Positions 23,038-26,947 of a stretch of DNA of 64,000 bases are shown here, piece by piece (position 1 is the stretch's first letter; the number at the start of each line of letters is the position of its first letter). The position numbers were made by a program, and so were the translations under genes. Origin of the DNA: an uncultured Nitrospiraceae bacterium (GTDB lineage: Bacteria; Nitrospirota; Thermodesulfovibrionia; Thermodesulfovibrionales; UBA6898). The notes below the pieces were generated by a model. The model searched no databases. It was not told the origin of the DNA and was given only the letters and a program-made list of their open reading frames with translations. Location of the stretch: the NCBI GenBank assembly GCA_963811165.1, contig CAWEQH010000004.1:576001-640000 (forward strand), given 5' to 3'.

Positions 23038-23049
23038 TGCCGACCTGAC

Positions 23050-23084
23050 AAAAAAACCCTGATCCCTTCGAAAAGGGATCAGGG
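23050..23084 (-). terminator. Rho-independent terminator closing the rSAM-peptide unit
   Basis: CCCTGATCCCT-tcgaaa-AGGGATCAGGG stem with an A7 run on the left, giving a U-tract on the minus strand. Confidence 0.85.
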
Positions 23085-23108
23085 GCATTATCGCGGGGTC
23101 TTACTCTT

Positions 23109-23171
23109 CTAGCAGGAACTTTTGCACTTACAGGTGAGAGCGGACTTTTTCTGGACCTTCCTGATCGTCAT
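23109..23171 (-). CDS. 20-aa Cys-rich peptide MTIRKVQKKSALTCKCKSSC, putative RiPP precursor (not in the ORF track)
   Basis: Hand translation; RBS AAAGGTGGTG 5 nt before the ATG; 33 nt after the rSAM stop; terminator follows. Confidence 0.75.
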   Translation of the reverse strand: MTIRKVQKKSALTCKCKSSC

Positions 23172-23204
23172 ACATACACCACCTTTCATACAGGAATCCC
23201 GGCC

Positions 23205-24356
23205 TCATGCAGGACCGTCATACTGATCCATTATATCATACATGGCGCATCTGTAAAGGTCCCTTCCGAGCGGACCTTCAAGGGCCTCGGCCCTGTATCT
23301 GCATCCGCCCCGGCAGTGCTCAAGATGCGTGCAGTCGCATCTGAGGGCGGCGAGCCTGACGGGCGCTATCCTTTGCCAGCACGCTGCGAGTCCGTCGGCG
23401 ACGCTGCCGGCAGGGCTATCGGAATAGAAGGTGCATTTTGAAGCCGCCCCTTTTGCGGATACGGACATTAAGTGCAGACCGCATGCAAAACCGGGTTCTC
23501 CTGCATGGATCCCGCTGCCGTACCCATAAGCGAGGTACCTCCCGCCCTCCCGGGGGCTTACCATGAGCTCCCTATTGCGTTTCATTCTCCCTTCCGCGCA
23601 CGGCACGTCGACGGTCCAGTCCTTGACCCCCATTTCTCTGAAGAGTTTTTCCATGGCATCGAAATCATTCAGATTTGCGCAGTGGACCATAGTGGAGACT
23701 GAGACAGCGAATCCTTTCGCGAGGCAGTTTCTCGCCGCGTCGAGGGAGGCATGAAAGGTCCCTTTCCCACGCAACAGGTCGTGTGGGCCTTCAAGACCGT
23801 CTATGCTTATCTGTATTTCATTGACATTGAGTCCTTCGATGATCTCCCCTTTCAGCAAGGTGCCGTTTGTAAACAGGACCTTTCTGAATGAAAATGCCGG
23901 GAGCATCTCGTTGATCTCGGCAAAGCGGCTGTGCAAAAGCGGTTCTCCTCCGGTAATAAGCAGTCTCAGACCCTGCATTTCCTCAAACTCTTGCAGGACC
24001 TTTTTTATCTCATGCACGGAGAGTTCAGCCTTCCCGTTTTCTTCGATATAGCAATGTCTGCATCTCAAATTGCACCTTCCCGTGATCTGCAGTTCCAGAT
24101 ACCGAAGTGATGGGCGGGGGGACTTCATAAGGGGAGGTCTCATGAGCGGCATTCTTTCGGTCAATAAAATGCCTTCCCCGAGGCAGTAGTCTGTAAAATC
24201 CCGGCTATCGGAACATCCGCCGTGTTCGGAAGAACATCCTTTAAGGAATTCAAAGGATTCTTCGTCCAGATCATAAAGCTCGTCTGTCCCGATATGATAA
24301 ACCGAAGGCGTTTCGAGCCATTTGAGCGCGCATGCATTCGATAAGAAAAAACGCAT
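23205..24356 (-). CDS. Radical SAM/SPASM-domain protein with N-terminal extension (putative peptide maturase)
   Basis: CNLRCRHC, TGGEPLLH, ISIDG, C-terminal C..C..CDC.....CRGGCRYRA..DLYRC; about 80-aa N-terminal domain. Confidence 0.9.
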   Translation of the reverse strand: MRFFLSNACALKWLETPSVYHIGTDELYDLDEESFEFLKGCSSEHGGCSDSRDFTDYCLGEGILLTERMPLMRPPLMKSPRPSLRYLELQITGRCNLRCRHCYIEENGKAELSVHEIKKVLQEFEEMQGLRLLITGGEPLLHSRFAEINEMLPAFSFRKVLFTNGTLLKGEIIEGLNVNEIQISIDGLEGPHDLLRGKGTFHASLDAARNCLAKGFAVSVSTMVHCANLNDFDAMEKLFREMGVKDWTVDVPCAEGRMKRNRELMVSPREGGRYLAYGYGSGIHAGEPGFACGLHLMSVSAKGAASKCTFYSDSPAGSVADGLAACWQRIAPVRLAALRCDCTHLEHCRGGCRYRAEALEGPLGRDLYRCAMYDIMDQYDGPA

Positions 24357-24640: not shown

Positions 24641-24970
24641 ATGACGCTTATACGACAACTTTGCCTTCAATTCTGTCCCTACTACAAATCCTCAAAAAAT
24701 GAGGAGCTTGCCTGTGGCGGGTTTGTTGAGGTGCAGTCGCTATTAGAGAAGGGCAGGCGGATCTCATTTGATATGCGTGGCAGGGCGGTCGGACCGGAGA
24801 CTGTCAGGGCGCTTATGCGGAAAGTGTGCACGGCCTGCCCGTTTTACGGGGAGGATTGCGACTTTATCCTGAAGGGTGGAGCGGCCTCGCCGTGCGGCGG
24901 CTTTTTGTTGCTGGGACAGCTTGTGGATGAAGGGACAATATCTGTTGACGACGTAGGGGAGATGGACTAA
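24641..24970 (+). CDS. Small Cys-rich hypothetical protein
   Basis: GGAG RBS; twice-repeated C..CP(Y/F)Y...CGGF motif. Confidence 0.7.
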   Translation: MTLIRQLCLQFCPYYKSSKNEELACGGFVEVQSLLEKGRRISFDMRGRAVGPETVRALMRKVCTACPFYGEDCDFILKGGAASPCGGFLLLGQLVDEGTISVDDVGEMD

Positions 24971-25011: not shown

Positions 25012-25482
25012 ATGGAAAAATTTTCACTTCGCGAGGCGATCGAACAGGCGGTACAGACGGAAAGATTGGGGTTTGAGTTTTACCGTGAGATGGCGAAACG
25101 GTTTAGTGATAAGCAGCAGATGAGGGATTTGTGCGAGACGCTTGCGCGGAAAGAGCTCGATCATGAGAAAAGGTTTTCGCAACTCATGGGGGCGGTGAAG
25201 GATGGAGGGGAAGAGGATTGGGATGAGGTCTCGAAATATTTGAGGGCGATCGTGGAGTCCGAGTTTTTCCTGGGCAAGGGGAAATCACTGCCTTCACTCG
25301 ACAAAGTAAAGACGGTTGCCGATGCGGTCAGGTTTGCGATCGGTTTTGAGAAGGAGACGCTGCTTTATTTCTATGGGATAAGGGATGTGCTCAAGGAAAA
25401 AGACGTTGTCTCTGAGATCATCGCCGAAGAAAAGAGCCACATACTTTGGCTTAGCGGATTCGCCCCCGGCACGAAACAATAG
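25012..25482 (+). CDS. Ferritin-like / rubrerythrin-family protein
   Basis: E..G.EFY, E..H, FEKETLLYF, EE..H diiron pattern. Confidence 0.85.
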   Translation: MEKFSLREAIEQAVQTERLGFEFYREMAKRFSDKQQMRDLCETLARKELDHEKRFSQLMGAVKDGGEEDWDEVSKYLRAIVESEFFLGKGKSLPSLDKVKTVADAVRFAIGFEKETLLYFYGIRDVLKEKDVVSEIIAEEKSHILWLSGFAPGTKQ

Positions 25483-25904
25483 TGCGGCAGTTGATAGGGT
25501 ATTTGAGGCTCTTACATGGTGCTTTCAATCTCTTTGTCATGATGTTTTTTATCTACCAGGGACGCGCGGGGCTGAGGATAAGAAAGGAAAGGGACAAAGG
25601 CATCGTTACGCCTTCTCTTATTAAAAAGCACCGAACGACCGGTCCTGTTCTGGCGGTATTGGGGCTTTTAGGGTTCATTTCGGGGATCGTAATAGTCTTG
25701 TTCCATTTCGCCACCGTGGTGAAGTATCCCCTCCACCTTGCGGTTGGATCGGCGTTGGCACTTTGTATTGCCGCAACTTACCGGATATCCAGGGGAATAA
25801 AGGTCCACGAGCCTCAGTGGAGGACATTGCATTTTGCTTTTGGCCTGGGTGTCTTGAACCTGTACGCTGCTCAGGTCTTTCTTGGATTTGGGATCCTTTT
25901 TTGA
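25482..25904 (+). CDS. DUF4079-like membrane protein with conserved His residues
   Basis: Four TM segments, each with a His (LLHG, KHR, PLH, LHF). Confidence 0.6.
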   Translation: MRQLIGYLRLLHGAFNLFVMMFFIYQGRAGLRIRKERDKGIVTPSLIKKHRTTGPVLAVLGLLGFISGIVIVLFHFATVVKYPLHLAVGSALALCIAATYRISRGIKVHEPQWRTLHFAFGLGVLNLYAAQVFLGFGILF

Positions 25905-26836: not shown

Positions 26837-26913
26837 GCGCCCTTAGCTCAGCTGGATAGAGCGTCGGACTACGAATCCGCAGGTCGGGGGTTCGACTCCC
26901 TCAGGGCGCGCCA
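26837..26913 (+). tRNA. tRNA-Arg(ACG)
   Basis: GCGCCCT/AGGGCGC acceptor stem, AGCTCAGCTGGATAGAGC D-arm, loop CT-ACG-AA, GGTTCGACTCC, CCA. Confidence 0.97.
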
Positions 26914-26947
26914 CCTTTTCTTGGCTTAGATAAAGGATTTACAAGGG

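Follow-up and report, generated by a model that had tools for sequence, protein, structure and literature searches.

A conserved 20-residue cysteine peptide encoded beside a radical SAM/SPASM enzyme in Nitrospirota: a RiPP-like system with a candidate role in copper binding

Introduction

The precursors of mycofactocin and PQQ are short peptides with a fixed C-terminus, a promoter and terminator of their own and a housekeeping-like spread, and the mycofactocin maturase performs an oxidative decarboxylation at the C-terminal residue of its precursor. In the SCIFF (ranthipeptide) systems, the open iron of the SPASM domain of CteB was proposed as the site for a substrate cysteine, and SCIFFs are counted among quorum-sensing peptides (PMC8326336). 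SbtM makes a thiooxazole from cysteine (PMC9204691), the thiooxazoles of bufferins bind copper (PMC11626156) and CrpC is a radical SAM enzyme that cross-links a cysteine-rich protein (PMC13692751).

Here we describe a locus that shares the broad features of radical SAM/SPASM RiPP maturation, namely a CxxxCxxC domain, a SPASM domain, an RRE-like domain and a precursor gene that tracks the enzyme. It lies in the window, a 64,000-nucleotide stretch of the genome of an uncultured Nitrospiraceae bacterium, whose initial annotation had proposed a minimal pair of enzyme and peptide. The features of the locus are collected in Table 1; the coordinates first given for the enzyme, the peptide, the Shine-Dalgarno sequence and the terminator were all correct when we rechecked the sequence.

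Table 1. Features of the locus, in coordinates of the window
Feature	Position	Strand	Basis and remarks
Intrinsic terminator	23049..23084	-	12-bp stem 23084-23057, T run; starts 24 nt past the peptide stop
20-aa precursor MTIRKVQKKSALTCKCKSSC, basic leader and CKCxxSC C-terminus	23109..23171	-	Conservation, codon pN/pS; start ATG 23171, 33 nt past the enzyme stop; stop codon ends at 23109
Shine-Dalgarno AAAGGTGGTG	23177..23186	-	Sequence
Leader region; in relatives two ANGAA-loop hairpins, the second over the Shine-Dalgarno	23181..23213	-	Degenerate in this genome
Putative maturase of 383 aa: radical SAM/SPASM enzyme, RRE-like domain at the N-terminus	23205..24356	-	Profile matches, tree
Putative peptide-gene promoter TTTACA-16-TATAAT, TG-extended, within the final codons of the enzyme	23230..23257	-	Sigma70-like, 11/12 matches
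SPASM domain	23247..23483	-	Seven conserved Cys: 292, 308, 340, 342, 348, 352, 370
SAM-cluster motif CxxxCxxC, C95/C99/C102 (residues 95-102)	24051..24074	-	Invariant in 44/44 homologues
RRE-like domain, residues 1-70	24147..24356	-	AlphaFold2 model and structural matches
109-aa Cys-rich partner, divergent, no known family	24641..24970	+	Seven invariant Cys, two look-alike halves

Results

A conserved peptide gene that tracks the enzyme

The unannotated 20-codon ORF is a genuine gene. Among 301 genomes of the Nitrospirota phylum (130 enzyme-positive, 171 enzyme-negative), a strict DNA pattern for the peptide tail matched in 87, every one of them enzyme-positive, with no match in the 171 enzyme-negative genomes and no control match across all 301; a second strict-pattern match in one genome was due to chance. 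The strict pattern missed 43 enzyme-positive genomes, and a variant peptide was found 3' of the enzyme in 28 of 40 such loci. In the 15 enzyme-positive genomes still remaining, a relaxed pattern recovered an unlinked tail in 12, two of which carry only a copy of the second type described below (one with a broken start). Strict matches, downstream variants and relaxed matches together place a peptide tail in 127 of the 130 enzyme-positive genomes; with the relaxed pattern, the peptide was not found in the enzyme-positive genomes G107, G191 and G200. Of 33 enzyme-negative genomes to which the relaxed pattern was applied, it matched in one. This genome, G154, is 99% complete and holds the peptide and the partner protein (L267, L339) without an enzyme match, possibly through loss of the enzyme or a gap in the assembly.

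The small ORF conserved beside enzyme homologues that the initial annotation had anticipated was recovered as a near-identical peptide after the enzyme in 61 of the 76 enzyme loci examined. In a second phylum, to which a Desulfobacula record belongs, the enzyme is present in 30 of 251 genomes; the peptide lies up- or downstream of it, often upstream, in 21 of the 30 loci and elsewhere in 8 of the 9 other genomes, so that 29 of the 30 enzyme-bearing genomes have it. A metagenome scan gave at least 120 matches, with mostly complete peptide genes among the matches listed, and a first scan of a genome collection gave two loci, one of them a true relative. Three pattern matches in viral sequences were all due to chance, and phage carriage was therefore rejected.

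The census of all loci comprises 242 loci with 191 distinct sequences of 19-20 residues and three cysteines. It should be noted that the invariance of the three cysteines, the serine and part of the leader is partly built in, because the census filter fixed them; a looser tail search recovered the same tail. All gathered peptides stop at the tail cysteine, which the search patterns required. Over codons 2-13, pN/pS is 0.27 (952 close pairs), and the differences fall mostly on the third codon position (1497, 1282 and 4260 at positions 1, 2 and 3). The other frames are interrupted by a stop inside 60 nt in 210 (+1) and 134 (+2) of 223 genes. A chance ORF is thus excluded by the specificity of the strict pattern, the recurrence beside the enzyme and the pN/pS. 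None of nine peptides that were looked up is present among ~15 billion predicted proteins, which indicates that gene callers miss the family.

Expression signals and leader RNA hairpins

The signals around the peptide gene recur among its relatives. A purine-rich, Shine-Dalgarno-like run lies upstream of 75 of 75 peptides among those listed, and an extended -10-like box is found 5' of 92 of 186 Lys17 loci (those whose tail has lysine at position 17, as in the window), compared with 4.6 in shuffles. Downstream sequences fold with a mean of -23.7 kcal/mol versus -14.2 kcal/mol when shuffled (186 loci). The strong sigma70-like promoter in the final codons of the enzyme makes a short transcript of the peptide's own likely, and translation is likely controlled at the Shine-Dalgarno hairpin. 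The basic 20-residue peptide has neither a hydrophobic stretch nor a Sec signal peptide in its sequence, and its gene holds no selenocysteine codon.

ANGAA-loop hairpins occur within 70 nt 5' of the Lys17 genes at 75 of 186 loci versus 6.4 in shuffles, and as tandem pairs at 42 of 186 versus 0.1, with the Shine-Dalgarno forming the 3' arm of the second hairpin. The second-type copies, with His or Tyr at position 17, are mostly without such hairpins (3 of 26 have them). In the first stem, 40 aligned leaders show double changes at 7 of 7 pairs and a covariation of 0.567 versus 0.207 shuffled, figures to be read knowing that 33 of the 40 were picked for having both hairpins and that the motif was defined by eye on the same loci. 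The leader has no Rfam match near any gathering score. Overall, these patterns indicate that the leader likely carries a regulatory RNA element. CsrA was considered as the reader of the hairpins and rejected: it was not found in this genome, where tandem ANGAA hairpins are also infrequent (2 pairs).

A radical SAM/SPASM enzyme with an RRE-like domain

The enzyme has a single match per genome in 130 of the 301 genomes. Its radical SAM domain matches PF04055 with 70.4 bits, and each of its seven C-terminal SPASM cysteines is kept in 42-44 of 44 homologues. The SPASM model TIGR04085 matches with 25.3 bits (E 1.5e-5), just below the cut-off of 27, and the structure model of this region is of low confidence. 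Seven cysteines are one fewer than two fully ligated clusters would take, which suggests two auxiliary clusters with one CteB-like open iron site, as predicted from the sequence.

The initial annotation had proposed that the N-terminal extension is an RRE, and the predicted fold agrees, with moderate support. Residues 1-81 modelled separately with AlphaFold2 gave a confident structure (pLDDT 86.5) whose structural matches are TigE (Z 6.8), TbiB1 (Z 6.7, rmsd 2.2 over 64 aligned residues), lasso B1 (Z 6.7) and PqqD (Z 5.5); the best scores of 6.7-6.8 lie below 8. The top three and many of the best 22 matches are RiPP proteins. With Foldseek, the best matches were TbiB1 and SuiB, every one with E > 0.001, and the Pfam PqqD model matched weakly in 1 of 58 members of the enzyme family. 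For the whole enzyme, the nearest folds are SkfB, BlsE, CteB and SuiB.

No described peptide or maturase family was matched, in keeping with the possibly new family of the initial annotation. The NCBIfam models matched none of 49 peptides, and the window protein passed no NCBIfam cut-off among its best 25 of 73 matches, of which NirJ is the highest (96.7 bits versus 515). The cut-offs of the curated maturases AlbA, StsB, GggB, PapB, SbtM, MftC, PqqE, NirJ and AhbC/D were all missed by a wide margin, the scores for GggB, PapB and SbtM being those of relatives of the enzyme and not of the window protein. In a quick tree, 73 members of the enzyme family group together as a clade that excludes 13 other radical SAM proteins (SH-aLRT 95), and distant relatives carry the archaeal source names Promethearchaeota, Archaeoglobi and Methanosarcinales. 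At two loci of the second phylum, a second, distinct radical SAM gene lies directly 3' of the enzyme (L236:2392-3559, L243:1182-2244).

A third conserved gene

The locus is more than minimal, because a conserved gene missed by the initial annotation, that of the divergent seven-cysteine protein (24641-24970), belongs to the system. A search with one query sequence matched this partner in 115 of the 301 genomes. Of these, 113 also encode the enzyme, often at a distance from the partner; the other 17 genomes with the enzyme showed no partner match. Among the 30 loci of the second phylum, 4 encode partner and enzyme as one fusion protein and 20 have the two genes side by side, and the same fusion appears in five proteins of the profile search. 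It has no passing match in Pfam, NCBIfam or the PDB. The partner probably assists the enzyme as a protein that binds a metal or an Fe-S cluster.

Two further genes accompany the partner at some loci. A cupin (a weak Cupin_2 match) is fused to the partner or lies 3' of the enzyme at 21 loci, two of them an identical place (L001:3261-3959, L004, L005, L021 and many of L226-L245); it was rejected as a core component, being not found in this genome. At 10 of 20 loci with an unlinked partner, the gene cutA immediately precedes it, all 10 coming from two related families, and stop and start codons often overlap in the cutA-partner pairs (L336-L338, L345-L347, L349, L351, L352, L354, L357-L359). In three genomes such a pair lies ~3 kb from dsrAB. 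This pairing gives the copper role a second, weaker support, as CutA is described as binding copper with pteridines (PMC12685090).

Among the commonest neighbours, read from their sequences, we recognised no protease, peptidase, exporter or other transporter, no sensor and no conserved family of client enzymes; the absence of a protease and an exporter had been remarked at the outset. An intracellular redox or metal role had been suggested from the neighbouring SOD and ferritin-like genes, and this argument is weak because SOD adjoins only 9 of 196 loci and the rubrerythrin type of the window 7 of 196; the metal role itself draws support from the His17 copies in copper clusters described below. 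SOD and rubrerythrin were accordingly ruled out as components of the system. In the window, the genes next after the partner are a rubrerythrin-like and a DUF4079 gene (25012-25904, plus strand), which are not widely found with the system, and a listed short ORF at ~26850-26930 (plus strand) looks like a tRNA gene and not a protein. One large group of loci has a rubrerythrin-like gene near the peptide (41 of 196 loci) and, near the peptide in 28 of 196 loci (L126:767-1039 and 27 others), a 91-residue protein outside Pfam families.

A strict tie to dissimilatory sulfite reduction was also rejected: dsrA passes its cut-off in 147 of the 301 genomes, many of them free of the system, and two complete genomes that carry the system, G003 and G015, gave no dsrA match. 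The dsrA of the genome studied here (G000:C8:231910-233082; L341-L344) is split into four pieces in different frames, which suggests that the assembly may carry indel errors.

Second copies in copper-linked clusters

Second copies of the peptide were sought with a loose pattern for tails without Lys17, which also gave many chance and control matches; from 29 candidate loci, two chance loci and two with broken starts were removed. True second copies end in CKCH-x-SC or CKCY-x-SC, and every confirmed one belongs to a genome that also encodes the enzyme, at a site separate from the enzyme gene. The window's genome has the Lys17 copy only. Some genomes have three peptide copies (L324:4050 and L324:5734; L322, L323), among them an Arg17 variant that starts with ATA and lies within a copper cluster.

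A P1B ATPase gene lies within 2.5 kb of 12 of 22 enzyme-free His/Tyr17 loci with a flank of at least 3 kb. For Lys17, the count is 1 of 24 enzyme-free loci with the same flank and 2 of 113 overall. When short contigs are included, the ATPase is near 15 of 25 Nitrospirota His/Tyr17 loci, in 9 of 10 families, and 10 of the 25 are without one nearby. A random 5-kb segment of this genome would meet its single such gene ~0.2% of the time. Related loci are non-independent, and Fisher p-values overstate the copper link; the copper clusters may be a single mobile island. CPC or CPH is present in 13 of 15 ATPases examined, and 12 of those 13 also have YN and MxxSS-like motifs, a set which we take to be copper-type. 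The Pfam domains near the second copies are HMA, HMBD, YHS, MerR, DUF4396 and ICMT. A thioredoxin-reductase-like protein with a fused YHS domain is a recurrent neighbour of His17 peptides in the copper clusters (L313:3723-4787, L317:6059-7243, L331:3675-4763), and the same clusters encode Met-rich exported proteins outside Pfam families. Two His17 peptides of the second phylum adjoin the enzyme, with the copper marker absent. Copper genes are nearly absent around the Lys17 copy, that of the window included (2 of 113 loci), and a role in copper handling may therefore be confined to the paralogue.

Discussion

Based on these findings, we tentatively favour a reading in which the enzyme modifies the peptide by thioether formation and the cytoplasmic product would bind or buffer copper. 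Its parts differ in strength. That the 20-residue peptide is the substrate of the adjacent enzyme is very probable from the conserved pairing; a role of the product in handling copper or another soft metal is an evenly balanced proposition, drawn from gene neighbourhoods; and Cys-to-carbon thioether chemistry in the CKCxxSC tail, proposed by analogy, falls a little short of even. The open SPASM site also fits SbtM-like cysteine oxidation, which argues against the thioether reading (PMC9204691). The product probably stays in the cytoplasm, since there is no sign of an exporter, a protease or a signal peptide.

We envisage that the RRE-like domain would grip the basic N-terminal leader and that one core cysteine would be bound at the open SPASM iron. 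A thioether ring would then close to the invariant Ser19 or the near-invariant Lys15, the likeliest acceptors, leaving the remaining thiols positioned for Cu(I). In the paralogue, His17 would add a nitrogen ligand beside Cys16, and the single enzyme of each genome would modify both peptide copies in trans. More speculatively, and with somewhat less confidence, these elements may belong to an old three-part system of anaerobic bacteria, its enzyme having archaeal relatives, in which the radical SAM enzyme and the seven-cysteine protein, as a new metalloprotein, turn the 20-residue peptide into a cytoplasmic copper ligand. Such a ligand would be a metal buffer made by radical SAM chemistry in sulfidic, anoxic cells, with the Lys17 form as a housekeeping copy under a new tandem-hairpin RNA element and the His17 form as a recruit to copper-resistance islands.

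The same gene pair and metal role would also suit an enzyme that oxidises cysteine, through a thioaldehyde to a 5-thiooxazole, and so yields a bufferin-like metallophore. SbtM is a radical SAM/SPASM enzyme that makes this conversion (PMC9204691), the thiooxazoles of bufferins bind copper (PMC11626156) and the His17 copies, lying in a copper context, agree with it; we nevertheless consider this unlikely, since members of the enzyme family score 54-65 bits with the SbtM model, whose cut-off is 350, and SbtM acts at a Gly-Cys that is absent from the core here (PMC9204691); the peptide also has no signal sequence. It is equally improbable that the product is a redox cofactor, or its precursor, made at the C-terminal Ser-Cys, the copper setting of the second copies being secondary. 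One enzyme per genome, wide conservation and retention even when unlinked speak for a cofactor, as do the dedicated partner, the optional cupin and the predicted promoter and terminator of the peptide; the tails all stop at Cys, as the search patterns required. However, we recognised no family of client enzymes conserved around the loci, the mycofactocin maturase model reaches 71 bits versus 265, and dsrA is not strictly tied to the system.

SCIFFs, equally lineage-wide, are classed as quorum-sensing peptides (PMC8326336), and a leader with a likely regulatory RNA element could suit a SCIFF-like RiPP that acts as a signal or regulator and leaves the cell through a general export system encoded elsewhere. 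We regard this as very improbable, because we recognised neither a transporter nor a protease or sensor in the commonest neighbours and because the copper clusters would stay unexplained. We give still less credence to a peptide that stays unmodified and either binds metal through its plain thiols or regulates, or carries a cluster for, the enzyme, whose true substrate would be another molecule, for example the Cys-rich partner. CxC-x3-C could hold a metal unaltered, and CrpC sets a precedent for radical SAM cross-linking of a Cys-rich protein (PMC13692751), but the RRE-like domain and the conserved leader-like N-terminus fit a substrate, and the fusion of partner and enzyme in 4 of 30 loci suits a subunit role for the partner better than that of a substrate.

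The peptides form a widespread RiPP-like family across many anaerobic bacteria that gene callers have overlooked, in which a precursor of very small size is accompanied by a partner protein outside the known families. The copies in copper clusters give a peptide of 'function unknown' a directly testable role, and the leader hairpins hint at an undescribed RNA-protein control. If the thioether and copper reading holds, it would show how strict anaerobes handle thiophilic metals and extend radical-SAM peptide chemistry into metal homeostasis.

Among described systems, mycofactocin and PQQ resemble this one in having a short precursor whose C-terminus is fixed and whose gene has a promoter and terminator to itself (predicted here), and in their wide spread; they differ in that the MftC and PqqE models score 71 of 265 and 53 of 381 bits and in that no peptidase or client enzyme was recognised nearby. 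Bufferins are likewise Cys-based RiPPs linked to copper stress, similar to the role proposed here, yet they have a Sec signal, cores of 60-70 residues and a non-haem iron MNIO enzyme in place of a signal-free peptide of 20 residues and a radical SAM enzyme (PMC11626156). SbtM, too, is a radical SAM/SPASM enzyme acting on peptide cysteine (PMC9204691), and is set apart by its model score (54-65 versus 350 bits, family members) and by the Gly-Cys motif and selenocysteine codon, both absent here. CrpC belongs to a family other than that of this enzyme (PMC13692751). In the literature we found no description of the system or of the tails CKCKSSC, CKCKGSC, CKCKASC and CKCHSSC, although large mining tables may list the enzyme; matches to TCKCK were unrelated by title, and the RRE-Finder supplements readable as text gave no match.

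The closest likeness is to the sactipeptide and SCIFF systems. SkfB is the top PDB match by both sequence and fold, and sactipeptide precursors likewise contain cysteines, whereas the sactipeptide maturase models stay far under cut-off (AlbA 53 of 850, StsB 58 of 625 and, for a relative, GggB 54 of 650 bits) and no exporter or protease was recognised near this locus. With the SCIFF systems (CteA-CteB, Tte1186a), the locus shares the combination of RRE, radical SAM and SPASM domains with a predicted open iron site, the lineage-wide conservation and a Cys-rich precursor with a leader (PMC8326336). The resemblance of the peptide itself to SCIFF precursors, suggested at the outset, extends to a few residues and fails in size and cysteine count, with ~45 residues and 6 Cys in SCIFFs versus 20 residues and 3 Cys here, ending at the last Cys (PMC8326336). 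The SCIFF maturase model is outside the best 25 of 73 NCBIfam matches and hence below ~53 bits, and this system differs in its additional Cys-rich partner and in its hosts, Nitrospirota and Desulfobacterota. Judged by sequence, the system therefore appears to be a RiPP of the CteB/SkfB kind that stands outside SCIFF and every named family compared.
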